Shown here: in pieces, positions 25,305 through 51,953 of the stretch | How positions within the stretch are numbered: position 1 is the first letter of the stretch | Layout of the letters: every line of letters starts with the position of its first letter | Origin: Nanobdellota archaeon | Lineage (GTDB): Archaea; Nanobdellota; Nanobdellia; Woesearchaeales; DSVV01 | Length of the DNA stretch: 51,953 bases | NCBI GenBank assembly: GCA_051819785.1 | Contig: JBNJGV010000001.1 | Coordinates: 1-51,953 of the forward strand | Direction of reading: 5' to 3' | Position numbers and translations under genes: made by a program | The notes under the pieces: generated by a model | What the model saw: the letters and a program-made list of their open reading frames with translations, nothing else | Told to the model about the DNA's origin: nothing | Databases searched by the model: none

Positions 25305-25347
25305 TCCAATAAGAAAAATTTAAATTATATTAAAATTAGGCGGTTTT

Positions 25348-26946: not shown

Positions 26947-26983
26947 TAGGAAGTTTTTTATTTACTAATCTATCACTTATTGT

Positions 26984-29007: not shown

Positions 29008-29052
29008 TTTTTTTCGAAAAGTATTAATATTATATTAAATTTTAGGAGGCGT

Positions 29053-30180: not shown

Positions 30181-30193
30181 TTTTTTCTATATT

Positions 30194-31084: not shown

Positions 31085-31123
31085 CTTTTTATAATTGACC
31101 CCTTTCTTTATATTTTTTGTTAT

Positions 31124-31957: not shown

Positions 31958-31988
31958 CTACATCACTTTGTGCTATGTTCTGTAAAGA

Positions 31989-34071: not shown

Positions 34072-34090
34072 AAAAATTTATATAAAATTT
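34072..34090. promoter_or_regulatory. AT-rich TATA-like element in the divergent intergenic region (serves 34118 + gene; a second TATA-like atttaaatat at 34025-34034 faces the Hxs-like operon)
   Basis: AAAAATTTATATAAAATTT lies 28-46 nt upstream of the ATG at 34118, which also has a GAGGT SD at 34110-34114. Confidence 0.35.
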
Positions 34091-34117
34091 AATCCCAAAT
34101 TTTTAAAAAGAGGTACA

Positions 34118-37146: not shown

Positions 37147-40100
37147 ATGAGATTAAAAAAGGGCCAAGTTATGATTTTTGTAATAATGGGGATGGTGGTT
37201 CTTTTAATTTTTGGTTTTCTTTATTCATTCATAAGTTCACTAAAAAAAGAAGGTCTTGAAAGTCAGCAAGAGGAAAAGGCCCGTGCACTTAAAATAAAAA
37301 ATGAATTTAAAAACTATGTGGGTTCTTGTTTTGATAATGCTGCTAAAGAAGGTTTGCTCTTAGTGGGCAGACAAGGCGGAGTTATATATGATTATCAAGC
37401 CGATAATGCTGCTAGATACAGGGGGCCGCCTAAACGTCCATATGGCGAATATATTCTCCCTTTTCTTGACAAGCAAGAAGATGTTATTTATAACGTTAGT
37501 TATGGAATTACAAAACCCTCCTTTGATGAAACACATCCTTCGCCACCATTATACCCTTACGGGCCCACAAAACTTGTTGAAGACCCAACTAAATATAGCT
37601 CTTCATATGTAAATGTTTTAGGAAACTATCCTCCTCCGGGCCCATTTGTTCCTCTTTGTGATTATAATGGAAGAAATGCTCCTGGCAAGGCTTCAATTGC
37701 GCACTCTTGTGAAACTTATGATAGCAGAAATGCTTTTATACACAACTCTCTTCAGGAATATCTTGAATTTTATGTGGAGAATAAAACTACTGCGTGTGTT
37801 AAACAAAATGCTTTTAGAGCATTAAATTCTACAGTTAATGTTACAAACGTCAACGCTTCTGTGATGTTTTCTAATGAAAAGGTTTATTTTGATTTAGATT
37901 TTCCTGCAAAAATACATACAGAGGGTGAAATAATAAACTCTGATTTTAAAAGGTTCAGCATTGTTGTGGAAAACAGATTGAAGCTTGTACATGAGTTGGC
38001 GTCCCGCTTAATAAAAGAAGATGTAAACAACATTTTTTTTGATATAGTTAAAGACGCTTATACATTAAACAGCTGTAGGGAATGGGGGCGCGATGGTAAG
38101 GTTTGTCTTAAAGAAGGAATGACTATAGAAAAAATCAGGAACCACTGTAAAAAAACAGAGGAGTTAAATTGTCCAAGTGGTGCCGATTATGATGATTTGC
38201 TTGTTATAAGAGATCAAGATTCTTTTTTGTATGGGGAACCCTTTGAGTTCTATTTTGCAATTGAAAACAGGCCGCCGGCTCTTGACTTGATACTTCAACA
38301 GAAAGGTAAAGTGGGCTTTATGTACGACTTTGTCTCCTTTGTTGGCGATGAAATTTTAATAGAACCGAAAGCCTATGACCCTGACGAGAGTTTTCATGGA
38401 AATAACAGGTATATGCAAAAAGGCTATGATTATGGGATGTGGAAGGAAGATTATGATGAAGCATATAATAAGTTTTTTTGCAGTGTGAATCCTGAAGAAT
38501 GTATTAGTGACCCTGGTGGAAAGGCAACGGTGAAACAACCTTCTTACAAACCCAATGCTTGGTCTTCATCCTCAGAATTTGAGAAAACAGAGCGAGCGGC
38601 AAATTATGTAACTCAAAAAAAAGATTGGGGAGCACATGAGGTAAAAGTAAAAGCATGCGATGATGAAGGCCTTTGTGATTATCAGAAGGTTACAATTTTT
38701 GTTGGTAATATATTTGAGAATCAAAGCTTTAATCCTTATTCAGATATTTCAAATAATTTTGCTTCAATTGAAGACCCTTACACAATTGTTTTTCCTAAAG
38801 TTGATTCTGGCTCTGAACCTGCTAAATATGAGATAAAATTAGATTCGCCTTCAGGAGAGAATATTTTGACCCAGAAAGATTCAGAAAGATTCCTTAATAT
38901 ACCATTAGTTGATACAATCGGCGAATTGTCTCCTTCCGAGTTAAGGAACAAGGTTGAAGAAGTTTTTTCTGACAAAGGGGTTTACAATATCGGATTTGAA
39001 TCATTTGATGCTTCCGATAATTTATTGTACTCTTCAGATAACAATGAATTAGAAGTTAAGGAATGCCTGCCGCATGATTCGGAAAATCCTCCGTATCCCT
39101 TTACCAAAGAGAATTACTTACAGGCAGACCATGCTTGTTGCTTGGGGGATGAAAACAATCCTTCAGGAAGCTTTTGGGGAACCTTTGCCGATAGTTCAAC
39201 TGTTTGTTATTCAAAAAAAACAGAGGGGTGTTTTGCTAATTTTTCTGTTCCTGAAGGTGTTGATTATAGTCTTCCTTCCCCTCCGACAGGCATGGATGCG
39301 AAAGATGTTTATGAATTTGACCTTGAAGTAAAATGCTCTGGAAATGAAGGGGTCAGTTGTACGGGTGACACTTCAGGGTCTGTAGAAAAAATACAAGAAT
39401 GCGGCCCTTGTCAGACATGCAAGGCTGGAAGCTCTGAATGCATAAATATGCCTTCGTATGACTTTGTCTGCAATCCTTCTTACGAGTGTTCGCTTGGTGA
39501 ATTTAAGCAATATAATGTAGGTGGGAACTACTCTTGCCAAGCTGCTTGTGATGAGGAAGGGAAATGTAATATTGCAATAAATTGTAGTTGTGATGCGCAG
39601 CATTGTTCTGCGGAATGCGACGATGGCTGGTATCAATGGGTTGGGAATGTTTGTAATTTTAACTGTAGTAACAATTGTGCCTTCCAAGAAAAAGATAGCA
39701 CTATTTGTTCAGCTCCCTCTTCTCCATCTAATTCATATGACTTTGGAAGTGGCTCTATTTTATTGGGTGAAGAAAGTGTGGGTTCCATCTTACAAAACGA
39801 TATAGAATTTGATGATACAAACTATGGATCTGTCTGTGTTCATAACAACAAGTGCCATGTATCCTCGTGTTATGAAGATGGTGTTGGTGAATATGAAGGA
39901 GATGATTGTTATCCTCCTGGTGTTGCCCAAGGCGAGAGGTGTTATACCTCGCCTGGCCCTGAATGCAATCTAGACGCTGAATGTACCAGTTATGATGTTT
40001 TGTCTTTTTATGGAAACAATCCATCAGGGAATACTTGCTATTATAATATTACTTGCCTTGATTCAGGATGGGATTATGAAATAGATACAAGCAAACCTTC

Positions 40101-40329
40101 TGGACACTACAAGGATGGGGGAAAATGCTATTATGGCTCCTTTTGCCATTCCTCTGAGGGTTGGAAAAAGCATTCGGACAGTACTAAACCCTCTCCAAGT
40201 GCAAGTGGAGGTGTGTGCCATTATGGCTCTTCTTGTACGAATTCAGGATGGTCCTATGCTTCTTCAGACAGCACCCAGGTTCCTGACTGCACTAACAAGT
40301 GTACAAATACTGGATGGAAGTGTATATAA
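37147..40329 (+). CDS. Giant pilin-like protein (1060 aa): class III signal peptide fused to a Cys-rich extracellular region; candidate pilus-tip adhesin
   Basis: I prefer the ATG at 37147, which gives MRLKKG-QVMIFVIMGMVVLLIFGFLYSFI (a basic stretch, G, Q at +1, then a roughly 22-aa hydrophobic helix). It has a PKD-like block (HEVKVKACDDEGLCDYQKVTIFV), a CC motif (HACCLGDENN) and C-terminal C-x3-[ST]GW repeats. Confidence 0.7.
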   Translation: MRLKKGQVMIFVIMGMVVLLIFGFLYSFISSLKKEGLESQQEEKARALKIKNEFKNYVGSCFDNAAKEGLLLVGRQGGVIYDYQADNAARYRGPPKRPYGEYILPFLDKQEDVIYNVSYGITKPSFDETHPSPPLYPYGPTKLVEDPTKYSSSYVNVLGNYPPPGPFVPLCDYNGRNAPGKASIAHSCETYDSRNAFIHNSLQEYLEFYVENKTTACVKQNAFRALNSTVNVTNVNASVMFSNEKVYFDLDFPAKIHTEGEIINSDFKRFSIVVENRLKLVHELASRLIKEDVNNIFFDIVKDAYTLNSCREWGRDGKVCLKEGMTIEKIRNHCKKTEELNCPSGADYDDLLVIRDQDSFLYGEPFEFYFAIENRPPALDLILQQKGKVGFMYDFVSFVGDEILIEPKAYDPDESFHGNNRYMQKGYDYGMWKEDYDEAYNKFFCSVNPEECISDPGGKATVKQPSYKPNAWSSSSEFEKTERAANYVTQKKDWGAHEVKVKACDDEGLCDYQKVTIFVGNIFENQSFNPYSDISNNFASIEDPYTIVFPKVDSGSEPAKYEIKLDSPSGENILTQKDSERFLNIPLVDTIGELSPSELRNKVEEVFSDKGVYNIGFESFDASDNLLYSSDNNELEVKECLPHDSENPPYPFTKENYLQADHACCLGDENNPSGSFWGTFADSSTVCYSKKTEGCFANFSVPEGVDYSLPSPPTGMDAKDVYEFDLEVKCSGNEGVSCTGDTSGSVEKIQECGPCQTCKAGSSECINMPSYDFVCNPSYECSLGEFKQYNVGGNYSCQAACDEEGKCNIAINCSCDAQHCSAECDDGWYQWVGNVCNFNCSNNCAFQEKDSTICSAPSSPSNSYDFGSGSILLGEESVGSILQNDIEFDDTNYGSVCVHNNKCHVSSCYEDGVGEYEGDDCYPPGVAQGERCYTSPGPECNLDAECTSYDVLSFYGNNPSGNTCYYNITCLDSGWDYEIDTSKPSGHYKDGGKCYYGSFCHSSEGWKKHSDSTKPSPSASGGVCHYGSSCTNSGWSYASSDSTQVPDCTNKCTNTGWKCI

Positions 40330-40342
40330 CTCTAATTACATT

Positions 40343-40358
40343 AGAAAAATATATAAAT
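40343..40358 (+). promoter_or_regulatory. BRE/TATA-like promoter element upstream of the 2070-aa surface protein gene
   Basis: AGAAAAATATATAAAT lies 34-49 nt upstream of the ATG at 40392 and is identical to 22115-22130. Confidence 0.4.
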
Positions 40359-40391
40359 TAATTATGGTGGTATTATGGTTGTTAGGATAAA

Positions 40392-43300
40392 ATGCTGATT
40401 AAAAAGAGGGTAATATGTAGTTTTTTGTTGTTTTTTGTTGTAGTTTTGTCTATTTCTAGCTATGCTGTAGAAGAAACAGGATATTGCTCAAATCCAATTA
40501 TTCAGTCTGTTTGCTCTGACGATTCTGTTTTAATTACTGAGTGCTGTCCTGAAAATTTTGAAGGATATGGGGGAGCTGGATATCCTAGTGGTGTTGAAGA
40601 TTGCAAAAATAATTATTTTGCTGCAGATTCAATTGATAATATTGAAAACTGTGAAAAGGGCAGTTGCTTTATTGATGGAGAAGCTAATTGTCTTAAGGGC
40701 GCGTATATAGCAACATGTTATTATGAAGGGGGAACGCCTTCAACGACTTCTTGGGATGAAAACCCTCAGTGTATGGAAGGTTGTTGTTGCTATGAGGAAG
40801 ATAGTGTCCAGGAGTCCTTGATAAGTACACAAGGGTATTGTGGTAATAATCCTTCTTCAACATTTTATTCAGAAATTGAAGACTCTGATGCATGTTCTGC
40901 TGAATGCAGTGCTTCTGACCCTGGTGAAGGCGAGCCCGGGGGGGACGATGATGACGACGAAACTCCAAGTGAAACTTCAGAATGCGGTAATATGCCCTAT
41001 TGTGAGATAGAAGGACCACTGGCAGGATCTTGCTGCTGTGATGGAGAGGTTTGCGAAAATGGAGAGTTCTGTTGTGAAGGATCTTGTTTTTCTGTTCCAT
41101 GTGATGAGGTATGTGAAAGATCTGAGCCGTGTGGAACTACAGATGAAAACGGCTGCCCTCTCTTTAAAAAATGCTTTCCTAATGGCTCACTTGCTAAAGA
41201 GTGTACTCCAAGGCCTTCTTGTACAAGTGGTTTTGAAGTCTGTGACACCCCTGAAGATGATGATGGGGATGGCAAAATAAATTGCCAAGAAGCTTTTTGT
41301 GATGGAATGGTTTGCGCTGAAACAGAAGCTGAAAAATCAGAAAATTGTCCGGATAATTCTTATTATGATGCATCAGAAGGTGTTTATAGGTGTTGCTTTG
41401 GTCTTGACCTTAATGATTGTGATGGGGAAGATGGCCCGGACACCTGTGGTGAGTGTAATTGTCTGGAGAACCCACGTTCACCTGTTCTTGACCCAATAGA
41501 GGTGGTTAGAGGGCAGAGAGGAGTGGACATAAGGTGGCACCTTAATTGTGAAGGCGTAAATTATAGGTTAATGAGATGCGAGGGAGAAGAAAATTGTGAT
41601 AATAATGTTTTTAACTTAAGGACGCAAACTTCTAAGTCTACTTTCTATGATGAGGGAATTAAAGAAAATACAAAATATTGTTATTATGTAAAAGCAATTT
41701 ACCCTAATGCAGGGGCAGAAGGCATGGTCATTAAAAAATCAGATGAGAAATGTTTTACTTCTGGAGATAGTGTTTGCATGGAAGTTTCAGGAAGTAGTTT
41801 TTGTCTGGATGAAACAGAGGGCTTTGCAGATAAGCTGGTTTTGAGAGCAACTTGTACACAGGAGAATGTTCTTTCCGTCCAAGAGAATTGTATTCAAAGC
41901 CATGACGAAAATTATGTATGTAGGGGGCCTTTCCCGCCATATGGACAAACGGATTGTGTTTACCAGTCCCCTTGCGAAGAATGCGGGAATCCTTTTGGTG
42001 TTTTTGCTGATTATGATGAGAGTTCTACTTCATTAGGGGAAGGAGGAGAGGGTTTTTGTAAAAATGCACAAACTTGTTATTTTGATTATACTCCTACTTC
42101 TATAGATAATTTTCAAAAGTGCAGCCAAGTTCAGACATGCTATGATTACAAAAGTAAGTCTGCTTGTGAAGGCCAGGCAAGTAAAGCCGAGGAGCAGGGT
42201 GGCCTTGGTTCAAATAATAAATGCCTGCCAAGAGATTGTAAATGGAAAGATTTTGAGGACCTTTCGACAGGAGGTATTTGTGTAGAAAAATCTGACGAAT
42301 TCAGAGATTGTCAAAGCTGCAATGAGGCCGAGTACAACGATATTTTTGGTGCTTGCAATGTTGATATGTGCTCTCTTTTTGGGGATTGTTATTTGAGGAA
42401 CGCCGATTATAAATGTGTTTCTAAAGATAAAATAAGCTGTAAGGATTACCAAACACCTGAGGAGTGCATGGGCGGCTCAGAGCTTCAAGTTGATGTAGAA
42501 TATGAAGAAGGTAGCCGGGTTTCCGGCACAAATAATATTGAGCAACAAAGCGGCGATACTCTGGGTTTTGGTGTGTGTAGATGGGACGATAGCAAAAATC
42601 CCTCATGCTTTAAAGATGCAGATTTTAATTCATTTAAGGATCCTTCTCCTGGCGGCTCGTCTTTTGATATGACTCCTCCTAATACAACAATTCTTTCAGG
42701 AAGATACACTAAGGATCTCAACTTGAGCTTTGAAGTGACAGATTTTAATCCAGATGGTTCAAAAGGCTCTGGTGTTGAGCATTGGGATGTTTTCTTTTGC
42801 AAAACCAAAAAAGGAGAAGCCCCTTGTTATCCAAATAGCTATCCTGAAAAATTAGATAACGGTAAAGGATGGGTTTATCTGGGGGGCGGCACAGGCGTCT
42901 ATGAGGTCTATTATTATTCCATGGATAAAGCGCACAACCTTGAAAAAGTTAAGAAAAAGGAGTTTGAAATTGATATGTCTGCTCCAGAGATTGAAATCTC
43001 TTCTTTTGTTAATGAAGATTTGTCTGAGTTTATAAATAGTGAGATAATGTTTTTTGTTAATACAAGCGAAAGCACCCATTGTTGGGATTATTTTGAACAG
43101 ACAACCGACTCGCAAATAACTGGTGATACTTGGGGGGATAAATGGACCACTAAATATTCTGGCCTTACCGATGGAACTTATGAGTATAAGGTTGTTTGCG
43201 AAGACAGAGCAGGTAACAGAAACCAGGAAGTTGTTTCAGTAAGAGTTAATGCTGATTCATTTATAGATAACACTTTACCTGAAGGAAAAATAGATTATTC

Positions 43301-46300
43301 AGATATTACTCTGATGGCTGAAACATTAAAGGATACCAATTGTAAATGGGGCCCTACTCCTAAGGATTATAATAAATTGCCATATACTTTTTCTAAAATG
43401 AAGGAAGTTGATGGGTATTTTCAACATACTTCTTCTCCTGATGTAGTTAGTGAAAGCAAAACATATTCATTTGATGTTAAATGCATGGATGGGGACAGGG
43501 TTTCTGATGACGAGATACAATTTGTCTATGATAATAAATCACCTGTCACAACGGTTGTTGATTCAAACAATAAACCAATTGATTTTTCTTCTTGGTATTC
43601 TGGCGCAGCAGCAAAAAATAAGTTTTTCCTCGCATGCAATGATTCACCTGAAAACGGGTTTGGCTGCGATGAAACATTTTATTGTATAGATTATAACAAT
43701 GATGTGTGTGTTCCTAATAAAAAAATCTCTCCTGATCAACCCCTTCCTCTTGATTTTTCTAATTCTGATTCTTTCAGGCTTTGCTATAAATCAACAGAAA
43801 ATGTTTTAAATGAAATGGGCGGAAAATCCGAGACCGCAGTTTGTAAAGAAATACAAATAGATACTAATCCTCCTGTTGTAGTGGTTGATTCTCTAAATGC
43901 ATATAAAGATCCTTCGAAACCAAAACAAATTAACACTCCTTCTTATACTTTAGAGGGTGAGGTTATTGACCCGGATGTTGTTAATGATGTTTCAGAAAAT
44001 TTTGTTGATATTGTTGTGGAACATAAAAAATCAGGTAATACTAGTGTGTATGATGATATTCCTGCCAATCCTGATTTTTTAAAAGATATAAGGATAGAAG
44101 AAGAGCTAAATGTTATTACTCTTTTTGCGACAGACAGGTCTGGAGCTAAATCTGGTTCGGTGAAGTATTATTTGTATTATACACCTTACGAAGGTGAGAT
44201 GATCTCTTTGAGCAGGCCTGCTTTTGGTGTTTCTGCTTCGAAAGAATTTGTTTTTGAAGTTGAAACCTATAGTAGCGCAGATTGCAGATATTCTTTGACA
44301 GGGCAAAAAAACGAAGCAATTGATATGGTTTCTTATACAGATAGTGGTAAGTTTTTACATAAAACTAAAAAGGATCTTGATTTGAGCTGGCTGAGTGAGA
44401 ATGTAAAGCATCCAGTGACGGTTTTTTGCAGTTTTGGGGGCAGAGAATTTGAAAAGGAATTTCAGATTTCATGGGACACAACACGTCCAGATATTACAGA
44501 TGTTTATCTTGAGAGAGTAAGAGAAGGAAATCCTCCTGCTTTGATAGAATTCCCTCTTGAATCAAATTTAGTTGTTAAAACAGATGATAAAGCAATATGT
44601 AAATATACAGAAGACCCTTCTTTAGAATACTACAACACTGGACAAAACACCTTTCCTGGTTATTATGATTCAAACTTTTCTAAAGTCAATAAGATTCTAT
44701 TAGATGATTTAGTTGATGGTAATTCTTATACGTTTTATGTACAATGTGAAAACGCAGTAACTGATGAATCAATTACTTTAAGTCCCAGAAAGACTTATAG
44801 GTTCAAAGTTGATACTTCTTTAAGTACTGGGATTGTTTTGGTTTCCCCGAAAGATCCTGTTTCAACTACTTCAATAGAGTTAAAAATAAGAACTACCAAA
44901 TCTGCCTCCTGGTGTGAAGCAGAGTATAATGGTGAAACAAAAAATATGTCTTCCTCAGGCGAGGAAGAGTTCTCTGCAACCTTTGAGAATGTTGCATTGG
45001 GTGAAAATGATTTCGATGTTTCTTGCCTTACTGCTGGCGAAATGGCCGAAGACCACTATAATATTCTTGTTGATACAACACCTCCTTCATCGCCTTCAAT
45101 TAATGATGGAAATGTATCTTCAAATTTGGAATCCCTGAGCGCCAGCTGGCATGCGAGCGACAACGAAACTGACGTGGTGCAATATAAATATGCAATAGGC
45201 AGTATGCCCGGCAGCGCTGATGTTTTAGGTTGGAAAAATACTTCTGATGATAATGCTGTAGCCGGAGGCTTGAATCTTACTAAAATGGAAACTTATTATT
45301 GGATGGTTAAGGCTAAAAATGAAGTAGGCTTGTGGGGTGATTCAAGTGTAAGTGATGGTGTGCTTTTGAATCCTGATTCAGACGATATCTCAAATAAGGG
45401 CTCTTCTGGAGATACAGGGCATTGTTCAAATGGAATACTTGATGAAGACGAAAGTGATGTAGATTGTGGTGGCAAAGATTGTCCGTCTTGCTCTTTTAAT
45501 TCAACTTGTGTATTAGACTCAGATTGTGCAAGCACCAATTGCGTTTCCGGCAAATGCGCAAAGCCAACCTGTGATGATAATATAACTAACCAGGACGAAA
45601 GTGATGTGGACTGTGGCGGGAATTGCAGTCCTTGTTCAAATGGAAAAGGCTGTAGTGTTGATAAAGATTGTGTCTCTGGTTTTTGTGATTATGGGACATG
45701 TTTCGAGCCAAATTGTAATGATGGTGTCAAAAACGGTGGCGAAGAAGGGGTAGATTGTGGTGGCCCCTGTAACAATTCATGTGAATCCATGCAACCTTCT
45801 ACTTGTGAAATAGATGGCAAAAAGGATACTGATTGTGATGGCATTCCTGATGAATGGGAGCTTAAGTATAGCGAGCACCTTGATATGCATAACGCTCAAG
45901 ACGCGAATTTGGATCCAGATGGGGACGGAAGAACCAATTTGGAAGAGTATATGGACGGCACAAACCCAACAAAAGCTGAAAAAAGCCAAGAAAAATCAAG
46001 TTATTGGCTTTTGATTTTGCTGATAATCCTTATTTTGCTTGGCTTTATTGTGGTTTGTGTTTTATCATACAAATATTTTTATTATAAAATTCCGCCTAAA
46101 TACAGGAAATATCTTGATGTGGTTGTGCAGCCAATTGCTAGTAGTATTAACAGAGCATTTGAGAAAATAAAGCCATTTTTGAATCGTGCTAAAACATTTT
46201 GTTCAAATATGCTTGAAAAATCTGGCCTTGCTCCATTTTTAAGAAAATATGGTATTTATTCTGATGCAAAAGGCAAGGCGCCTTATTCTTCTCCTGCTCC

Positions 46301-46604
46301 ATCACCTAAAATTACAAAAAAGTCTGTAGCATTTACTAAGGATGCCCAGAAACAAAAAGGTGCTTCTAAAGTGCCGGCAAAAGGACAAAAAACTAATCCA
46401 AATTTAGGAAATGATTATAAAGATACAGCGTCTACTAAAGAGATGATTCAACAAATCAGAAAAAAGCGCCAGGCAGAAAAACAAAAACAGAGACAAGAGG
46501 TGTTTTCGGAGTTTGACGAGAGTACGAAAGAAAAGCAAAAACCTAGAAAAAGGGGGCTTTTTGATAGAGTAAAAAAGGAATTTGATAAATATTCAAAAAA
46601 ATAA
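40392..46604 (+). CDS. Giant (2070 aa) type I membrane-anchored surface protein: Cys-rich N-terminal region, Fn3/Ig-like modules, tandem Cys-knot-like repeats, Ca-binding TSP3-like motif, TM helix, Lys-rich cytoplasmic tail
   Basis: The signal peptide is MLIKKRVICSFLLFFVVVLSISSYA-VEE. CC/CCC motifs include TECCPENF, EGCCCYEED, GSCCCDGEVCENGEFCCEG and YRCCFGLD. At least six module boundaries have the form D-x-[ST]-x-P (DMTPPNTT, DMSAPEIE, DNKSPVTT, DTNPPVVV, DTTRPDIT, DTTPPSSP). The TSP3-like motif is DTDCDGIPDEWE...DPDGDGRTNLEEYMDGTNP, the TM helix is YWLLILLIILILLGFIVVCVL, and the tail is about 190 aa and basic. Confidence 0.85.
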   Translation: MLIKKRVICSFLLFFVVVLSISSYAVEETGYCSNPIIQSVCSDDSVLITECCPENFEGYGGAGYPSGVEDCKNNYFAADSIDNIENCEKGSCFIDGEANCLKGAYIATCYYEGGTPSTTSWDENPQCMEGCCCYEEDSVQESLISTQGYCGNNPSSTFYSEIEDSDACSAECSASDPGEGEPGGDDDDDETPSETSECGNMPYCEIEGPLAGSCCCDGEVCENGEFCCEGSCFSVPCDEVCERSEPCGTTDENGCPLFKKCFPNGSLAKECTPRPSCTSGFEVCDTPEDDDGDGKINCQEAFCDGMVCAETEAEKSENCPDNSYYDASEGVYRCCFGLDLNDCDGEDGPDTCGECNCLENPRSPVLDPIEVVRGQRGVDIRWHLNCEGVNYRLMRCEGEENCDNNVFNLRTQTSKSTFYDEGIKENTKYCYYVKAIYPNAGAEGMVIKKSDEKCFTSGDSVCMEVSGSSFCLDETEGFADKLVLRATCTQENVLSVQENCIQSHDENYVCRGPFPPYGQTDCVYQSPCEECGNPFGVFADYDESSTSLGEGGEGFCKNAQTCYFDYTPTSIDNFQKCSQVQTCYDYKSKSACEGQASKAEEQGGLGSNNKCLPRDCKWKDFEDLSTGGICVEKSDEFRDCQSCNEAEYNDIFGACNVDMCSLFGDCYLRNADYKCVSKDKISCKDYQTPEECMGGSELQVDVEYEEGSRVSGTNNIEQQSGDTLGFGVCRWDDSKNPSCFKDADFNSFKDPSPGGSSFDMTPPNTTILSGRYTKDLNLSFEVTDFNPDGSKGSGVEHWDVFFCKTKKGEAPCYPNSYPEKLDNGKGWVYLGGGTGVYEVYYYSMDKAHNLEKVKKKEFEIDMSAPEIEISSFVNEDLSEFINSEIMFFVNTSESTHCWDYFEQTTDSQITGDTWGDKWTTKYSGLTDGTYEYKVVCEDRAGNRNQEVVSVRVNADSFIDNTLPEGKIDYSDITLMAETLKDTNCKWGPTPKDYNKLPYTFSKMKEVDGYFQHTSSPDVVSESKTYSFDVKCMDGDRVSDDEIQFVYDNKSPVTTVVDSNNKPIDFSSWYSGAAAKNKFFLACNDSPENGFGCDETFYCIDYNNDVCVPNKKISPDQPLPLDFSNSDSFRLCYKSTENVLNEMGGKSETAVCKEIQIDTNPPVVVVDSLNAYKDPSKPKQINTPSYTLEGEVIDPDVVNDVSENFVDIVVEHKKSGNTSVYDDIPANPDFLKDIRIEEELNVITLFATDRSGAKSGSVKYYLYYTPYEGEMISLSRPAFGVSASKEFVFEVETYSSADCRYSLTGQKNEAIDMVSYTDSGKFLHKTKKDLDLSWLSENVKHPVTVFCSFGGREFEKEFQISWDTTRPDITDVYLERVREGNPPALIEFPLESNLVVKTDDKAICKYTEDPSLEYYNTGQNTFPGYYDSNFSKVNKILLDDLVDGNSYTFYVQCENAVTDESITLSPRKTYRFKVDTSLSTGIVLVSPKDPVSTTSIELKIRTTKSASWCEAEYNGETKNMSSSGEEEFSATFENVALGENDFDVSCLTAGEMAEDHYNILVDTTPPSSPSINDGNVSSNLESLSASWHASDNETDVVQYKYAIGSMPGSADVLGWKNTSDDNAVAGGLNLTKMETYYWMVKAKNEVGLWGDSSVSDGVLLNPDSDDISNKGSSGDTGHCSNGILDEDESDVDCGGKDCPSCSFNSTCVLDSDCASTNCVSGKCAKPTCDDNITNQDESDVDCGGNCSPCSNGKGCSVDKDCVSGFCDYGTCFEPNCNDGVKNGGEEGVDCGGPCNNSCESMQPSTCEIDGKKDTDCDGIPDEWELKYSEHLDMHNAQDANLDPDGDGRTNLEEYMDGTNPTKAEKSQEKSSYWLLILLIILILLGFIVVCVLSYKYFYYKIPPKYRKYLDVVVQPIASSINRAFEKIKPFLNRAKTFCSNMLEKSGLAPFLRKYGIYSDAKGKAPYSSPAPSPKITKKSVAFTKDAQKQKGASKVPAKGQKTNPNLGNDYKDTASTKEMIQQIRKKRQAEKQKQRQEVFSEFDESTKEKQKPRKRGLFDRVKKEFDKYSKK
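45423..45785 (+). repeat. Three tandem Cys-rich repeats at protein level within the giant surface protein
   Basis: The repeats are CSNGILDEDESDVDCGGKDCPSCSFNSTCVLDSDCASTNCVSGKC, CDDNITNQDESDVDCGGNCSPCSNGKGCSVDKDCVSGFCDYGTC and CNDGVKNGGEEGVDCGGPCNNSC (the third is truncated). Confidence 0.85.
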
Positions 46605-46613
46605 GTGATAATT

Positions 46614-47117
46614 ATGTCTAAAGCCCAAATACCATCACAGATGTTTACATACATTTTAACTTTGCTTGTAATAGGGATGATGCTTTTTTTAGGGGTCAAA
46701 TGGCTGGGCTCTCTTATGGATAAAAGCGAAGACATTTCTATGGCAAAAACCAAGGTTGAGATGGAATCTGCATTTGAGAAGATAAAAACTAATTTTGGAA
46801 GCTGGGAATATAAGGAATTCAGGATTCCTTCTGAAGCAACAAGGGTATGTTTTCTTGATAGAAATTATGCAAAGAACGGAGATTATAAAAGCACCGGCAT
46901 TTGTACTGAAGGCAATAGTGATTATAACCCTATTATCTGCGAAGCATGGGGAGCAGAGACACAAAGTATAGTTTTTGAACCAATGGATGCAATGGAAATG
47001 ACTGTAGATGTTAATTATGTTGAGGTAGAAGGTGGATATATTTGCTTTAAAAACGAAAATGGTGTAATTAGGGTTAAGCTTACTGGTAAGGGCAACGCTG
47101 TTAAGGTTTCAGAATAA
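46614..47117 (+). CDS. Type IV pilin-like protein (class III signal peptide), candidate minor pilin
   Basis: MSKA-QIPSQMFTYILTLLVIGMMLFLGV. It starts 10 nt after the upstream stop. A GTG at 46605 is an alternative start. Confidence 0.6.
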   Translation: MSKAQIPSQMFTYILTLLVIGMMLFLGVKWLGSLMDKSEDISMAKTKVEMESAFEKIKTNFGSWEYKEFRIPSEATRVCFLDRNYAKNGDYKSTGICTEGNSDYNPIICEAWGAETQSIVFEPMDAMEMTVDVNYVEVEGGYICFKNENGVIRVKLTGKGNAVKVSE

Positions 47118-47118
47118 A

Positions 47119-48216
47119 ATGTTTTCTAAGAAAGGTTCAGTAGAGATACAATTTAACTGGGTTTTTATAATTATTGCAGGCTCGGTCCTGTTAATGTTTT
47201 TTGTGAAGGTGGCCGGCAATTACAAGTCATCTTCAGAGATGGAGATTGCTACAGAAGTCCTTGATAAAGTTGGTTCAATTGCTTCTATGGGCCAACTCAG
47301 TTCAAAATCGTCAAGCGTTATTACTGTGAAAGATTTAGAGTTGAGGACGCAATGCATTGCAAGCTCTTGCAATGAGTATGGCTGTGATGTTGATTTTGAT
47401 TTTCAAGATATGGGGCTCCCTTCGCCTGTGTGGATGGAAATGGAACCTGTGTTTTCCTCTAAGCATATTAAAGGTGGTGAGCTAATTATGTGGTCTCTTG
47501 ATTGGACAGCTCCTTATAAAGTATCCAATTTTTTGTACCTTACAAGCAATGGCCATAAATTTGTGTTTGTTTATGATCAAGATTCTACTGGTTCAGAATC
47601 TTTTGCAAGAAAAGCCTACCAAAAGTTTTCAGAAAATGAGTATGTAGATGCAGTATTGGTTGAAGAAAGCCAATTATCAACTGTTCCATATAATGCGGAA
47701 TATCTTGTAAAATTTTTACTCTTTTTTGACCCTTCTGAGAGCCTTTCACCCGACCCAGAAATTTTAAGACATCATTGGGACGTTGAATTTTTTCAAGGAG
47801 ATATGAAGTCAGGGACAGTTTGGTTCAGTAAGGACGAAGCCGATACAAAAGTCAGGGGAAAAAGCTATTCTTATTATGGCGCGCCTATGTTAATGGGAGC
47901 AATTTTTAGTGATAGTTATGAAGACTATAAATGTAATGTCAGAAAGGCAATGCTTAAATTTATCAAAATGAATTCTGTTTATTATAATCGAGCAGATAGA
48001 CTATATGATCATTTTTCTTCGATGGATTCAGCCAATCCTTCATCCCTTTGCCAGAACTATTTTGGCGCAGAATTGAAAAATTATATAATAGGAATTAACT
48101 CTTCAATAAATTCAAGCTATGACTTAGACGATGTTAGCGCGCTTGAGTCAAACCAAGACTATATTGAAGAAAAAAACCAACAAGCCTTGCAAAAGGATTG
48201 CCCGAGAATATATTAA
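47119..48216 (+). CDS. Type IV pilin-like protein (365 aa), candidate minor pilin
   Basis: MFSKKG-SVEIQFNWVFIIIAGSVLLMFFV. It starts 2 nt after the upstream stop. Confidence 0.6.
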   Translation: MFSKKGSVEIQFNWVFIIIAGSVLLMFFVKVAGNYKSSSEMEIATEVLDKVGSIASMGQLSSKSSSVITVKDLELRTQCIASSCNEYGCDVDFDFQDMGLPSPVWMEMEPVFSSKHIKGGELIMWSLDWTAPYKVSNFLYLTSNGHKFVFVYDQDSTGSESFARKAYQKFSENEYVDAVLVEESQLSTVPYNAEYLVKFLLFFDPSESLSPDPEILRHHWDVEFFQGDMKSGTVWFSKDEADTKVRGKSYSYYGAPMLMGAIFSDSYEDYKCNVRKAMLKFIKMNSVYYNRADRLYDHFSSMDSANPSSLCQNYFGAELKNYIIGINSSINSSYDLDDVSALESNQDYIEEKNQQALQKDCPRIY

Positions 48217-48217
48217 A

Positions 48218-48700
48218 ATGTTAAATAAGGCACAAATGAAGTCTCTTGAAACGATTTTTGTATTGTTCATTTTTTTTTTTATGTTAGTTTTTGGGTTTAT
48301 TTTTTATGCGGGTTTTTCTCAGCGGCAGGCTGGTGAAGATTATGAAAAAAAGGTGGCCTTGCAGGCGCTTGAATCTGCCCAGAGGGTACAATATTTACCT
48401 GAGTTACAATGTACAAAAGACGGGAAATATGTGGAAGCAGATTGCATTGATTTGTATAAATTAGAAGCATTTCAGGAACTAAAGGGCGTTTATAAAGATA
48501 CATATTCAAAGTATTTTCCAAATACGCTTATTACAATTAATCTAGTTTATCCGTGGAATAAGCATAAGGAATGGGTGGTTTATAATTATACAATAAATAC
48601 TTCAAAGAGTGGAACAAGATATCACATTCCTGTAAGCCTTTATAATGTAACCTCTGATAATTATTATTTTGGTTATGTAATGGTGGAGGCCAGATATTGA
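48218..48700 (+). CDS. Type IV pilin-like protein (160 aa), candidate minor pilin
   Basis: I prefer the ATG at 48218, which gives MLNKA-QMKSLETIFVLFIFFFMLVFGFIF. The track start at 48131 lies inside the upstream gene. Confidence 0.6.
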   Translation: MLNKAQMKSLETIFVLFIFFFMLVFGFIFYAGFSQRQAGEDYEKKVALQALESAQRVQYLPELQCTKDGKYVEADCIDLYKLEAFQELKGVYKDTYSKYFPNTLITINLVYPWNKHKEWVVYNYTINTSKSGTRYHIPVSLYNVTSDNYYFGYVMVEARY

Positions 48701-49233
48701 TGCAAAAAAAAGCTCAATCAGAGATTGTCGGTCTCTTGGTAATAGTTTTAATTATTTCGTTTATTCTTTTATTTGTTTTAAATTCTGTGGTTTTTGATGA
48801 GCCCGAATCAGTAAAAGGGATAAAAAATGAAAAATTGGCCTCTAGTATGATAAGTGCCATGCTTAATACTGATACCAACTGCACTCCCAATTCAAAGGTA
48901 AAAGATCTTCTTATTGATTGCGGCAAGTGGCATGCAATAGGTGCGACAGATTTAAGGTGTTATGATGGGAGAACCAGTTGTGAATATTTAAATGAGACAG
49001 GCGGAGTATTTGAAGTAATGCTTAATAAAACACTTGGAGAATGGTCCAGAACATATGAGTTTATAGTCACAGAGCCTCAAAACTTACACAATAAAATAAT
49101 CCACAAGACTGGCGGGAATTTAAGCGCTGTTGCTAGTGGAGGGCAAGCTGCTAACCAACCCTTGCCAGTTGGAAGAGGGTACGGGACAATGGTTATCTGG
49201 CTTTGTATGGGTGGATGTGGTGAGATAGCATAA
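48700..49233 (+). CDS. Type IV pilin-like protein (177 aa), candidate minor pilin
   Basis: MQKKA-QSEIVGLLVIVLIISFILLFVL. The ATG overlaps the upstream TGA (ATGA at 48698-48702 region). Confidence 0.6.
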   Translation: MQKKAQSEIVGLLVIVLIISFILLFVLNSVVFDEPESVKGIKNEKLASSMISAMLNTDTNCTPNSKVKDLLIDCGKWHAIGATDLRCYDGRTSCEYLNETGGVFEVMLNKTLGEWSRTYEFIVTEPQNLHNKIIHKTGGNLSAVASGGQAANQPLPVGRGYGTMVIWLCMGGCGEIA

Positions 49234-49286
49234 GTTTTATATATTAGTTTTAAGAATAGAGTAATATAATAGATGAGGTGATTTTA

Positions 49287-49523
49287 TTGGCAAAAGCACA
49301 AGGTTTATCACTTAATACGATAGTAATCGCGGCTTTGGTAGTTTTAGTTTTTGTAATTCTTGCAGCAGTTTTTATGGGCAGGATGAGCGTCTTTACAGGA
49401 CAGATAAGTGATTGTAAAGGGGTTTGCAGGGACGACCGTTGTGAACAGGGTGAATATGAGATTAGCGGTTCCTGTGGCGAAGACTATGAAGTATGCTGCG
49501 CAGAACTAGACAGTAATCGGTGA
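49287..49523 (+). CDS. Very small pilin-like protein with Cys-rich head (candidate major pilin)
   Basis: The TTG at 49287 is preceded by GAGGTGA (49275-49281) and gives MAKA-QGLSLNTIVIAALVVLVFVILAAVF, then DCKGVCRDDRCEQGEYEISGSCGEDYEVCCAEL. A GTG at 49278 is an alternative start. Confidence 0.6.
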   Translation: MAKAQGLSLNTIVIAALVVLVFVILAAVFMGRMSVFTGQISDCKGVCRDDRCEQGEYEISGSCGEDYEVCCAELDSNR

Positions 49524-49525
49524 AA

Positions 49526-49783
49526 ATGATTAATAACAAGAGCGCAGCAGAGATGTCTTTGAATGTTATTGTTGTAGCAGCGATAGTATTGATTGTTTTG
49601 GTTGTGTTAACTATCGCTTTTACTACAAAGTTCGGCGAGTTTAACAAACAGGTTGATGACTGTAATGCCAAAGGCGGCAAGGAAATGACTAAACAAGAAT
49701 GTCTTTCTGAAGGCGGGATTGTGATGTTTAGAATTTACAACGAAGAAGGCGATTCTACAAAGATGTATTGTTGTTCTACCTAA
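49526..49783 (+). CDS. Very small pilin-like protein with Cys-containing head (paralog of the previous gene)
   Basis: MINNKSA-AEMSLNVIVVAAIVLIVLVVLTIAF, then DDCNAKGG...QECLSEGG...MYCCST. A GTG at 49520 is an alternative start. Confidence 0.55.
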   Translation: MINNKSAAEMSLNVIVVAAIVLIVLVVLTIAFTTKFGEFNKQVDDCNAKGGKEMTKQECLSEGGIVMFRIYNEEGDSTKMYCCST

Positions 49784-49816
49784 AAATTTATAAAGCATTT
49801 TTTTTATAATTTGATT

Positions 49817-49945
49817 ATGTACAATAATACAGCAGCTATAAAAATGCCCCTTAATGTATTGATTGTTATAATATTTGTTATATTATTCCTTGTTTTTTTT
49901 GGAATCAGGTTCAGCCAAACCTTAAGCAAAATATTGAGTATTTAA
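49817..49945 (+). CDS. 42-aa pilin-like stub (signal peptide plus hydrophobic helix only; not in the ORF track)
   Basis: MYNNTAAIKMPLNVLIVIIFVILFLVFFGIRFSQTLSKILSI is paralogous to the N-terminus of 49526..49783 (NNKSAAEMSLNVIVVAAIVLIVLVVL). Its stop lies 1 nt before the next ATG. Confidence 0.35.
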   Translation: MYNNTAAIKMPLNVLIVIIFVILFLVFFGIRFSQTLSKILSI

Positions 49946-49946
49946 T

Positions 49947-50801
49947 ATGGGAAAAAAGAAAGGAATGGAGCAATCGGTTCTTGTAAAATTGATAGGTGTT
50001 GTGGCTTCCCTTATTGTTTTGGGTCTTTTGTTCAGGAATGTCTTTGATATAACATATGGAGAGACTGCTGAAAATATTTGCAGAATGTCTGTTATTAGTC
50101 ACTCCAAAACCCAGGTTGCCGGCTCGCCTATAATGAATCTTAAATGTCCCAGAAAATTTATCTTAATCGATAACGAAGGGTATAAAATATATTATGCAGA
50201 TGATTTACCTATAGATAAAGAAAAGCTTTCTTATAAAATCAAGTTTAATGAAAAAACGAGCTTTAAAAAGCAATTTTATGAACTTTTAGCAAATGAAATG
50301 GCCGAGTGCTGGTATAAATTGGGAGAGGGGAATTTAGATATTTTCCAGGAAGATATTTTTTTTACCAAATCTTCTTGCGTCATGTGTTCAGAGATTGGCT
50401 TTTCAAAGGAATTTGAGAAGTCAAGAGATATTGGTAATATTGGCGAGTTTAATGAATATTTAAAAACACATAATTTCACTAAATATGGTATTAATACTAG
50501 ATATGCCAACTTTTTATACAAAAATTATGACGCTTCTTTTTCCTTTTCTCATTTAGCTTATTTTATACAAGAAGACAGCATAAGTGTTTTATTTGATGAT
50601 GAAACTGGCTTTCAAACTGATGAATCATACTTAATCTATTTTAAGGGTTATAAGTTTGACAAAATTACCAAATCCTATAAATGGATTGGGGAAAAGATTA
50701 GTGGAGAAAAAATAGAAAAAATTTTTCCAAATGATAGGTATTTTGTGTTTTTTAGCGAACAGTCTGATGTTACTAAGGCTTGTTATATGATGGTGAATTG
50801 A
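49947..50801 (+). CDS. Pilin-like protein (284 aa)
   Basis: MGKKKG-MEQSVLVKLIGVVASLIVLGLLF. It shares ICRMSV, CP and W-x-x-[LM]GEG-x-x-[DE][IL]F blocks with the next gene. Confidence 0.6.
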   Translation: MGKKKGMEQSVLVKLIGVVASLIVLGLLFRNVFDITYGETAENICRMSVISHSKTQVAGSPIMNLKCPRKFILIDNEGYKIYYADDLPIDKEKLSYKIKFNEKTSFKKQFYELLANEMAECWYKLGEGNLDIFQEDIFFTKSSCVMCSEIGFSKEFEKSRDIGNIGEFNEYLKTHNFTKYGINTRYANFLYKNYDASFSFSHLAYFIQEDSISVLFDDETGFQTDESYLIYFKGYKFDKITKSYKWIGEKISGEKIEKIFPNDRYFVFFSEQSDVTKACYMMVN

Positions 50802-50803
50802 AA

Positions 50804-51700
50804 ATGGCAGAGCTTAACAGCACACTTGTGAAGTTTGTGATAGGAACTGTGGTGTTGTTTTCTCTAATCTTTCTTGTTACTAAGGAAGCCAATGTTTATG
50901 ATGATTCTATGGATAAGCAGATATGCAAGCAGGCGGTAAAGTCTATGGCGATAACTAATGTTGAAGGAAAGAATGCTCTTGAAATATTTAATAAAAGAGG
51001 AAATAAACAAGTGCAATGCCCAATCATTGAAAAATCAATTAAATCTTCAGAAAAAGATGTTATAAAAGAGAAACTTGCTCAGTATATGTATGATTCATGG
51101 GATATGATGGGTGAAGGAAGGTTTGAATTGTTTCCTAGTGAGGGTAGCGAAACTTACTGTATCTTGACTCACCACATAAAGTTTGAAGATGACGCAAAGA
51201 ATGTGGGTAAGGTTGAGGGGTTTGTTGATTATTTGATGAGCCATAAAATCAAGGGAGAAAGCAGGAAAAAAAGTTATTTTGATTATTTGAAATGCTATAA
51301 TACTCCTGAGATGAAAACCAAGACAAAAGATTTTGGTGGTGGTGTTAATGTTATCGAAACTACAAACGACTACGGGGTTATGTTTATTTATTCAAAAAAA
51401 GAGCATTTGCATAAAGTCTGGGCAGGTATGGAAGGAACCAAATATGGTACCTTAGCCGGTGGCCTTGCGAGTGTAGGTACTTTTTTAGTTCTTTTCCCTG
51501 AGCCTACAATGTCAACGAAAGTTGTAGGGAGCGCACTTTTAATAGGCGCAGGCGCAATTACTGGTGGAGTCGCGGGCTACACCACAGGTAGTGAGGTTTC
51601 TGCTGACTGGTCAGCTTGTACTATCTTGTTCCCGTATACAAAAGAATATCTTGATAAATTTCAGTGTACATATATGCCGGGTGTTCAGGGATCAAGGTAG
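50804..51700 (+). CDS. Paralog of the preceding pilin-like protein, with an extra Gly-rich hydrophobic C-terminal region
   Basis: I prefer the ATG at 50804: MAELNSTLVKFVIGTVVLFSLIFLV. It has ICKQAV, QCP and WDMMGEGRFELF blocks, and a C-terminal GTLAGGLASVGTFLVLFPEP...LLIGAGAITGGVAGY. Confidence 0.55.
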   Translation: MAELNSTLVKFVIGTVVLFSLIFLVTKEANVYDDSMDKQICKQAVKSMAITNVEGKNALEIFNKRGNKQVQCPIIEKSIKSSEKDVIKEKLAQYMYDSWDMMGEGRFELFPSEGSETYCILTHHIKFEDDAKNVGKVEGFVDYLMSHKIKGESRKKSYFDYLKCYNTPEMKTKTKDFGGGVNVIETTNDYGVMFIYSKKEHLHKVWAGMEGTKYGTLAGGLASVGTFLVLFPEPTMSTKVVGSALLIGAGAITGGVAGYTTGSEVSADWSACTILFPYTKEYLDKFQCTYMPGVQGSR

Positions 51701-51741
51701 AAACCGTAAATGTTTTAAATCCTGAAAAGCAAAGTAATCTT

Positions 51742-51888
51742 ATGGGTTTTGAGAAAAAGGCAGATATAGGTTTTTGGCTGGTTAAGCTTATTATTGCTCT
51801 AGTTACGCTTTTTATAATCATTATGATAATTTCACAGGCGAACTCGTCAAATATGGATTTTTTGAATTGGTTGAGGGATATCTTATGA
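51742..51888 (+). CDS. 48-aa pilin-like mini-protein
   Basis: I prefer the ATG at 51742: MGFEKKA-DIGFWLVKLIIALVTLFIIIMIISQ.... The track start at 51664 lies inside the upstream gene. Confidence 0.4.
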   Translation: MGFEKKADIGFWLVKLIIALVTLFIIIMIISQANSSNMDFLNWLRDIL

Positions 51889-51953
51889 AAAAAGGGTTTG
51901 TGATGAATAGCAAAATCATTGGGTTGGTGCTAGCCTTGCTTTTGTTGATTCTG
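51885..51953 (+). CDS. 5' fragment of a further pilin-like gene, continuing beyond the window end
   Basis: The ATG at 51885 overlaps the upstream TGA (ATGA). It reads MKKG-FVMNSKIIGLVLALLLLIL.... Confidence 0.4.
   Translation, partial: MKKGFVMNSKIIGLVLALLLLIL

Follow-up and report, generated by a model that had tools for sequence, protein, structure and literature searches.

A stretch of 51,953 nucleotides from a Nanobdellota archaeon of the Woesearchaeales (contig JBNJGV010000001.1 of assembly GCA_051819785.1; hereafter, the window) ends in an operon on the forward strand, most of whose products open with a short basic leader, a small residue and a long hydrophobic segment, the arrangement of class III (type IV pilin-like) signal peptides. 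As judged from sequence, this operon probably encodes the structural subunits of a type IV filament system that is specific to Woesearchaeota and whose logic is closest to that of the Epd/EppA pili of methanogens. A type IV pilin-like operon had been proposed here in an original prediction, and the N-terminal junctions, the prepilin peptidase-like gene and the layout that it described are borne out by our analysis; cleavage and assembly are what we infer from them. Genes are designated by a letter and the length of the product in amino acids (aa), as listed in Table 1, and orthologue families bear the letter of their member in the window.

N-terminal junctions and a candidate prepilin peptidase

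A basic leader, a small residue and about 20 hydrophobic residues follow one another clearly in ten genes: A, C, D, E, F, G, H, J, L and the gene that is cut by the end of the window (junctions are marked by a slash in Table 1). Two other products, I42 and K298, have no basic residue at position -2 and are degenerate, and they fail the class III leader rule; the remaining exceptions in the operon are U1001 and B2070, both of which carry Sec-type signals. The original prediction had ascribed the shared N-terminus to every open reading frame (ORF) from position 37147 on, bar that of the 2070-aa protein, and had counted at least 11 class III proteins. The pattern stands for ten genes, and the count is reached only by adding the degenerate I42 and K298. 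A detector for K or R, a small residue and an uncharged hydrophobic stretch of 18-19 aa behind it was positive for 9 of 12 operon genes, as against 0 of 27 upstream housekeeping genes (Fisher p = 1e-6).

The same junction recurs in orthologues, which were grouped into families by BLAST clustering across 80 loci (about 80 genomes), the motif itself playing no part in the definition. In family D (n = 122), position -1 is occupied by G in 68 members and by A in 45 (113/122), K or R stands at -2 in 115 and at -3 in 110, and the residues that follow are nearly fixed (E(+3) in 122, Q(+5) in 116 and W(+8) in 122), behind leaders that vary from 2 to 28 residues. All 72 members of family E have A, S or G at -1, Q(+1) and E(+6). 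The small residue at -1 is likewise found in 59/60 members of family C (A, S or G), together with Q(+1) in 52/60 and Q(+5) in 54/60, and in 66/67 of family F, together with Q(+1) in 66/67, E(+3) in 67/67 and G(+6) in 67/67. Family G (n = 96) has G, A or S at -1 in 87 and N(+6) in 88, and Gln is the commonest residue at +1 (58/96); family A (n = 21) has Q(+1) throughout, preceded by S, G or A. A charged leader and a small residue at -1 before the hydrophobic domain are also conserved in family J/K. Within the window itself, Gln at +1 is present in A, C, E, F and G and absent from D, H, J, K and L. It had been taken as the mark of EppA-type pilins, and the form K-[GAS]-Q-[IVM] does fit the sites of Epd/EppA, but it applies to only five of the window's genes and not to all of them.

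Archaeal prepilins follow a rule of G, A or S at -1 and a charged residue at -2 (PMC4371748), and the junctions in the window and in the families fit this rule across hundreds of orthologues with leaders of variable length. Because an uncleaved membrane anchor would need neither an invariant small residue nor an invariant Gln behind leaders of such different lengths, class III processing at the junction is likely, and we hold this with good confidence. The hydrophobic segment that follows has a conserved sequence across orthologues, with invariant W, G and F positions, and because this conservation is so strong, the segment would be retained in the mature protein and not discarded in the manner of a Sec signal. 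In profile-profile comparisons, an N-terminal module of about 30-50 residues is homologous from family to family at probabilities of 80-95%, scores that are inflated by the composition of transmembrane segments. Cysteine counts are even in every ectodomain. For annotation, the junctions supply a rule of the form K/R-K/R-[GAS]/Q, with E, N or Q fixed a few positions further on.

A candidate for the enzyme that would process these proteins is encoded about 17 kb upstream, where the original prediction had pointed to an A24-like gene. Homologues of its product number 75 and align over the full length at about 30-35% identity (best E = 4e-30); many of them, at E = 1e-20 to 1e-30, carry Peptidase_A24 (PF01478) and/or Arc_PepC (PF06819, the archaeal C-terminal domain), and some are named prepilin peptidase; the catalytic residues D23 and D86 (GDAKLF) are invariant among 12 homologues. 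With both aspartates in place and homologues of this kind, the earlier identification holds. The protein itself has no match to PF01478 or to any NCBIfam model, its direct Pfam match is weak (Arc_PepC, E = 0.07), and a profile of its family, when searched against the PDB, did not reach FlaK. We assign it to the A24 family, putatively, by transitive homology and by its catalytic residues.

Extent and composition of the operon

The operon very probably starts at U1001 (34118), because the upstream neighbour lies on the opposite strand and because a TTTATATA box and a GAGGT precede the ATG. From U1001 on, the genes are separated by 23, 62, 9, 1, 1, -1, 44, 2, 33, 1, 2, 41 and -4 nt. The original prediction had placed the operon at 37147-51953, with its genes 0-10 nt apart or overlapping: the ORFs in that interval are borne out, as are most of the tight junctions, but the start must be moved to 34118 and the end lies past the window, and gaps of 62, 44, 33 and 41 nt are wider than was claimed. 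Start codons agree with the NCBI calls for 8 of the 10 operon sequences looked up, and the operon genes looked up in NCBI (ACQESF_00165 to 00220) are all annotated as 'hypothetical protein'. The operon has a GC content of 33-40% and a uniform composition; an origin from a mobile element or virus is unsupported, given this even composition and the retention of the locus in chromosomes of the lineage.

A relative with 70% identity (ENA ERZ10759744 NODE_12, 187 kb; locus L001) is fully syntenic with the operon of the window. Past the orthologue of L, this locus continues with genes of 210, 91, 90, 209, 294, 184, 172 and 766 aa, each beginning with KKG or KKA and a hydrophobic helix, and then with an RPA-like gene. 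Because L001 thereby displays the content to be expected past position 51953, the whole operon amounts to about 21 genes, of which about 19 are class III-type and none is an ATPase, and it continues well beyond the end of the window. In the last operon gene of L001 (L001:18502-20802), a class III-type N-terminus is joined to an NlpC/P60 domain, that of a cell-wall hydrolase (E = 4e-12). We rejected this domain as a conserved part of the operon: other lineages share only the N-terminal 100-190 aa or so of that gene. Any counterpart in the operon described here would be located past position 51953.

Table 1. Operon genes, putative expression signals and the candidate peptidase in the window; a slash marks the junction
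Feature	Position	Strand	N-terminus or sequence	Description
Prepilin peptidase homologue	19391..20386	+		Divergent member of the A24 family (putative); 331 aa, polytopic; candidate processing enzyme for the operon proteins
TATA-box-like element	34077..34084	+	TTTATATA	34 nt before U1001; tentative promoter, suggested by its sequence
Ribosome-binding site	34110-34114	+	GAGGT	Tentative; before U1001
U1001	34118..37123	+	MVKGKYVLLFLVLVFLVVFATSVFA/GG	Secreted protein with Sec signal; 35 Cys
A1060	37147..40329	+	MRLKKG/QVMIF	Large modular pilin-like protein; hydrophobic helix, 1000-aa domain, C-terminal part Cys-rich
B2070	40392..46604	+		Giant surface protein; 117 Cys, Sec signal, predicted C-terminal transmembrane segment at about residue 1878, 174-aa K/R-rich cytoplasmic tail
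C167	46614..47117	+	MSKA/QIPSQMFTYIL	Core pilin-like protein 1
D365	47119..48216	+	MFSKKG/SVEIQFNW	Core pilin-like protein 2, largest of the core; 100% identical to NCBI ACQESF_00180
E160	48218..48700	+	MLNKA/QMKSLETIFV	Core pilin-like protein 3
F177	48700..49233	+	MQKKA/QSEIVGL	Core pilin-like protein 4
G81	49278..49523	+	LAKA/QGLSLN; AKA/QGLSLNTIVIAAL	Small pilin, ending in a 6-Cys knob; candidate major subunit; exact start codon uncertain
H85	49526..49783	+	MINNKSA/AEMSLN; NNKSA/AEMSLNVIVVAAI	G paralogue; second candidate major or alternative pilin
I42	49817..49945	+	NNTAA/IKMPLN	Truncated, degenerate H paralogue; helix only
J284	49947..50801	+	MGKKKG/MEQSVLV	Pilin-like protein of the J/K family
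K298	50804..51700	+	MA/ELNST	J paralogue with minimal leader; class III status uncertain; NCBI start identical
L48	51742..51888	+	MGFEKKA/DIGFWLVKLII	Tiny pilin-like or membrane protein
Cut gene	51885..51953	+	MKKG/FVMNS; MKKG/FVMNSKIIGLVL	Next pilin-like gene, cut by the end of the window; L001 orthologue 210 aa

Among 1.84 billion proteins, a profile of family D retrieved 2,004 cluster representatives at E <= 1e-3, 851 of which also passed E <= 1e-30, and relatives of D occur in 164 species-representative genomes. The 80 loci that were kept are nearly all labelled as Woesearchaeota, Nanoarchaeota/Nanoarchaeia or 'uncultured Methanosarcinales'. Many third-party annotation (TPA) records of metagenome-assembled genomes that contain the operon (loci L007-L086) are titled 'uncultured Methanosarcinales archaeon', and a few are recorded as bacteria (Dehalococcoidales, Binatia); such labels look like the result of mis-binning or placeholder taxonomy and not like the names of true hosts of the operon. 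Besides D, which is in all 80 loci, the families present are E (72 loci), B (70), F (67), C (60), G (51), J/K (43) and A (29), and further class III-type families. All families found in at least 10 loci are either class III-type or giant proteins with Sec signals, bar one (about 10 loci) with no class III N-terminus. The order giant-C-D-E-F-(G) is fixed, and the four mid-sized pilin-like proteins to which the original prediction had drawn attention, namely C-F behind the giant, constitute the most conserved part of the locus.

The AlphaFold2 (AF2) model of D (pLDDT 86, pTM 0.82) consists of a helix at residues 5-60, then a beta-rich or alpha/beta middle portion and a helical C-terminal domain. 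When compared with the PDB by Foldseek, the model had no neighbour (best E = 0.011, TM ~0.15), and the Rossmann-like matches that were returned were dismissed as noise (E > 0.01, TM ~0.15). A structural check for the alpha-1 helix and beta-sheet of pilins, as suggested with the original prediction, is therefore answered in part: the long helix of D is present, but its head is without a pilin neighbour. The AF2 model of F, built from 4 sequences, reached a pLDDT of 52 and was too poor to be used.

The giant B stands immediately upstream of C. Because of its C-terminal transmembrane segment and K/R-rich tail, B2070 is predicted to be a type I membrane protein, anchored in the membrane, and not a free tip adhesin. 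The combination of C-terminal transmembrane segment and basic tail recurs in 42 of 71 members of the B family at a strict threshold. The protein upstream of C usually ends in a transmembrane helix and a cytoplasmic tail of 125-330 aa, 20-34% of which is K or R (in L001, L008, L009, L036 and others). B2070 found no match in the PDB and a single weak match in Pfam (Big_13), A1060 matched nothing in Pfam or the PDB, and U1001, whose orthologue heads the syntenic locus L001 and whose family occurs in 13 loci, had no Pfam match.

As for the small proteins, the likely major pilins are G and H, of 81 and 85 aa, in place of the two tiny products of 42 and 48 aa that had originally been put forward as candidates. 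Members of the G family number 96 and are spread over 51 loci, frequently arranged in tandem, and their C-terminal CC is conserved; H matches G with 41% identity across its 46 N-terminal residues (E = 4e-9), and I42, which matches H at E = 8e-6, has a 40-aa orthologue in L001. The head of G and H is a knob of about 40 residues with 4-6 Cys that ends in CC, and a few members give weak defensin-like matches in Pfam (best E = 2e-4, below cut-offs), a likeness that probably reflects shared disulfide-rich composition only. The J/K family has 68 copies in 43 loci, and the two copies in the window are 24% identical (E = 4e-8). Locus L001 has an orthologue of L48 (46 aa), and another (53 aa) is encoded behind the ATPase of locus L125.

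Neither Pfam (E up to 10) nor NCBIfam (E up to 1) contains a pilin family model (Class_IIIsignal, archaeal Pilin_N, N_methyl) that matches any protein of the window, and no Pfam pilin family matched any of 35 members of the G family. Sequence searches of the PDB with A, B, F, G and the G-family profile returned nothing significant; with the profile, chains of pilins and flagellin-like proteins appeared only at E = 1.7-3.9, and weak defensin-like and transmembrane-helix matches were dismissed as compositional. The earlier remark that the proteins belong to no recognized family thus extends to Pfam, NCBIfam and the PDB.

Assembly genes and alternative readings

No T2SSE-type ATPase or platform gene was found in the 52-kb window, in agreement with the original prediction. 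A Walker-A scan (GxxGSGK[ST][ST]) of the 80 D loci returned only SMC-like proteins, and a looser P-loop scan uncovered a real ATPase in L053, a 766-aa T2SSE protein (E = 9e-14) encoded just after F. The same ATPase occurs in L036, with an A-family gene directly behind it. When this ATPase was used as a query, 80 metagenomic loci were recovered, 37 of them with enough downstream sequence; a protein of 650-760 aa directly follows the ATPase in 34 of the 37, and a run of at least four class III-type genes follows in 14. The 716-aa protein behind the ATPase of L125, the one member examined, is polytopic with eight predicted transmembrane segments and has no match in Pfam or NCBIfam, models of T2SSF/FlaJ included; we regard the polytopic protein of about 710 aa as a candidate platform. 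The ATPase itself best matches the models of FlaI (E = 4e-38), TadA and BasE (E = 7e-18), and matches T2SSE at E = 1e-15.

Hidden Markov models (HMMs) of the operon families, searched against the genes behind the ATPase, matched J/K in 13 loci (E to 2e-61), G in 15 (6e-14), and f184 and f294 in 7 each (8e-34 and 4e-21, respectively), the last two being the best supported of several further families, and seen only in the L001 continuation of the operon and not in the window. Homologues of J/K sit immediately downstream of the ATPase and platform genes. The order in L125 (ATPase, the 716-aa protein, J, L-like, M-like, G, G, other genes and an RPA-like gene) is that of the distal half of the L001 operon. 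Because the HMMs of C-F miss the ATPase loci while those of J/K, G, f184 and f294 match there, and because of the synteny of L125, the operon in the window looks like a fusion of an ATPase-independent module (U, A, B and C-F) with a pilin set that elsewhere lies behind ATPase and platform genes. The motor genes of this lineage would presumably be encoded elsewhere in the genome.

Other genes adjoin the ATPase. Coiled-coil proteins of about 127 and 205 aa stand beside it in unrelated loci (L125:8902-9883, L053:14743-15727); the FlaI/TadA-like ATPase has an N-terminal extension of about 400 aa, and three tandem membrane proteins of about 175 aa are encoded further upstream. The coiled-coil and tandem membrane proteins are possible extra components of the machine.

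If the operon encodes filament subunits, the precursors would enter the membrane and leave the leader on the cytoplasmic side, the peptidase encoded at 19391-20386 would cleave them behind the small residue, and the mature subunits would be drawn out and polymerised, by way of their N-terminal helices, by an ATPase and platform whose genes lie elsewhere in the genome. G and H, which are short (81-85 aa), multi-copy and possessed of the most conserved helix, would form the shaft, and C, D, E and F, which are invariably co-ordered, would form a low-copy or stoichiometric initiation or tip complex. This complex may work with the giant Cys-rich proteins U and B and with the modular pilin A in binding a partner cell, a host cell or a surface. 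A, J/K and the NlpC/P60 enzyme of L001, which are large and begin in the manner of pilins, would act as modular pilins.

Several observations weigh against this reading. The operon proteins have no sequence similarity to any known pilin family, and the globular part of D, with its alpha/beta and helical domains, is unlike any solved pilin in the PDB; since the model of F failed and only D was modelled with confidence, the structural support for pilin identity consists solely of the long N-terminal helix. The window has neither ATPase nor platform, an ATPase is nearby in only 2 of the 80 D loci, and in none of the 80 ATPase loci does C, D, E or F lie within 10 kb of the ATPase. Ser occupies -1 in about 30-45% of the members of C, E and F, which is less typical of characterised archaeal substrates, and the acidic residue stands at +3 or +6 and not at +5. 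Finally, the C-terminal membrane anchor of B implies that it is not a detachable tip protein of the PilY1 kind.

The same class III and A24 chemistry could yield a short pseudopilus or a bindosome-like surface scaffold instead of a long pilus, a scaffold that would hold A1060, J/K, the NlpC/P60 enzyme and the membrane-anchored B at the cell surface or at a site of host contact. Such a product would suit an operon with some 20 different pilin-like proteins, many of them large (284-1060 aa), the last of which in L001 joins a class III-type N-terminus to a hydrolase, and whose giant is anchored in the membrane and has a basic cytoplasmic tail; moreover, the ATPase also matches the model of the bindosome ATPase BasE (E = 7e-18), and class III signals on proteins other than pilins have precedent (PMC4858521; bioRxiv 10.64898/2026.04.22.720090). 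However, the very conserved, multi-copy G/H family with its minimal head resembles a shaft subunit, no substrate-binding-protein domains were found in the Pfam and NCBIfam scans, and the NlpC/P60 domain is not kept in other loci, and we consider a scaffold unlikely, if worth keeping in view. A different objection is that the N-termini are uncleaved signal anchors, such that the products are bitopic (type II) proteins that, with the giants, form an envelope or S-layer-anchoring complex devoid of filament machinery. The want of an ATPase or platform in the window, or beside C-F in most genomes, would then be natural, as would the globular fold of D, which is not pilin-like, and the retention of family D in much of the lineage, which a core component of the envelope would be expected to show; the positive-inside rule alone could explain the basic leaders. 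But anchors have no need of a fixed small residue, an invariant Gln and an acidic or polar residue 3-6 positions in, all of which are maintained in hundreds of divergent orthologues whose leaders may be as short as 2 residues or exceed 28. In relatives, operons with the ATPase and platform contain the paralogous families G, J/K, f184 and f294, a putative A24 peptidase with intact catalytic Asp is encoded in the window, and the anchor reading is, in our estimation, improbable.

We give hardly any credence to the proposal that the N-termini are ordinary Sec signals that are cut by signal peptidase I to release soluble products. Sec signals, too, consist of a basic N-region and then a hydrophobic one, and our detector flagged the true Sec signal of U1001; however, the hydrophobic segments of the operon proteins are strongly conserved and run on into a long helix, no conserved AxA-type site lies behind them, and the conserved junction precedes the hydrophobic region instead of following it. 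More speculative, and in our view doubtful as it stands, is the claim that the giant-C-D-E-F module is the core of a host-contact or envelope organelle across much of Woesearchaeota, as opposed to an accessory pilus tip. The four invariant pilin-derived proteins, among them D with a fold that has no known relatives, could couple the membrane-anchored giant with the long basic tail to a type IV filament motor, and as many as about 20 different pilin-fused modules could be presented by the organelle, in some lineages with a hydrolase of cell walls among them. If true, an episymbiont would have turned a type IV filament into its apparatus for attachment or feeding.

Woesearchaeota and related Nanobdellota are abundant, uncultured and ultra-small, and are thought to live attached to other cells. 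The operon supplies candidates for this attachment, in the form of a small major pilin family, four invariant minor-pilin-like families and giant surface proteins. All of these families are annotated as hypothetical and are absent from Pfam and NCBIfam, yet they occur in well over a hundred species-level genomes, and they are direct targets for labelling in cryo-electron tomography, for metatranscriptomics and for heterologous cleavage assays. The finding overturns nothing; it extends known machinery into a poorly charted lineage.

Genomic setting and comparison with known systems

The rest of the window is archaeal, with genes for Orc1/Cdc6, the small and large subunits of PolD, MCM, TBP, an RPA-like protein and RNase P p30 at 1.8-19.4 kb; a tRNA scan and an Rfam scan of the window found nothing. 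Positions 1-1826 are a 1.8-kb stretch of 21.7% GC without a long ORF, directly upstream of orc1/cdc6 (1827-3038), with the PolD genes next. Two mini-ORB-like elements, TTCCACAGGAAAC and TTCCAGATGAAAC (1751-1763 and 1810-1822), lie in inverted orientation with 46 nt between them just before the start of cdc6. This region is probably a chromosomal replication origin, with the weak statistics of 3 matches in the window against 0.75 expected. Between the peptidase gene and the operon, at 22462-33392, enzymes of polyamine synthesis are mixed with many radical-SAM/SPASM proteins. Besides an unusual 590-aa fusion of a radical-SAM domain with the C-terminal domain of the branched-chain polyamine synthase BpsA (22462-24234), this cluster encodes another BpsA_C protein (25348-26946) as well as a spermidine synthase (26984-28009).

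Among described systems, the Epd/EppA pili of Methanococcus maripaludis (TFF system 1/clade 1) offer the closest parallel. The sites that EppA processes there (KGQV, KGQI and RAQI) share with those of the operon the motif K/R-[G/A]-Q-[I/V/L] with Gln(+1) (PMC4371748); in both, multi-gene pilin operons encode several minor pilins together with large adhesin-like proteins (PMC4858521), and some pilin genes are unlinked to the ATPase. TFF system 1 has also been reported in some DPANN (bioRxiv 10.64898/2026.04.22.720090). Unlike the Epd system, the operon proteins have no detectable similarity to Epd pilins or to DUF361/Class_IIIsignal, Ser is frequent at -1 in their families, and in place of Glu(+5) they have an acidic residue at +3 (D, F) or +6 (E), or N at +6 (G). 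The operon also has far more pilin-like genes (about 19) and a giant partner that is membrane-anchored, and in relatives a single gene for a polytopic protein of about 710 aa, in place of two platform genes, stands behind that of the ATPase (about 760 aa).

In their survey of DPANN, Makarova, Wolf and Koonin (2019; PMC6393860, Fig. 2A) predicted that dark-matter genes beside FlaI/TadC encode diverse pilins, the cognate pilins of nanoarchaeal pilus ATPases having not been identifiable in 2016 (PMC4858521). The unannotated small proteins with signal peptides that they placed next to a type IV pilus ATPase and TadC correspond to our ATPase-linked module (in L108, L125, L131 and others). Theirs was, however, a general prediction from few genomes, and the giant-C-D-E-F core, its spread over 164 genomes, the junction motifs and the separation from the ATPase are undescribed in the text of that paper.

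The organization of the core recalls bacterial minor pilins (FimU-PilVWX-PilY1 of type IVa pili; GspH-I-J-K of the type II secretion system): four co-ordered genes, one of which encodes a larger product (D, 365 aa vs. about 160-177 aa), lie beside the genes of a small major subunit and of a very large surface protein that is not a pilin, and an acidic residue lies near the mature N-terminus. The likeness is of organization only, there being no Pfam, NCBIfam or Foldseek match to these sets; moreover, the archaeal host has a single membrane and no secretin, and B is without the PilY1/DUF2341 domain and has instead a transmembrane anchor and a basic tail. As in the modular pilins of bacteria (Streptococcus sanguinis PilB, PMC8179133) and the substrates of the Sulfolobus bindosome, a class III N-terminus is borne by large modules (A1060 and the NlpC/P60 enzyme of L001), which differ in having no recognized domains bar NlpC/P60 and no sugar-binding domains. 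Set against all of these systems, the apparent novelties are the giant-C-D-E-F core and how widely it is spread in Woesearchaeota, the junction motifs, the fold of D and the giant partner with its membrane anchor.

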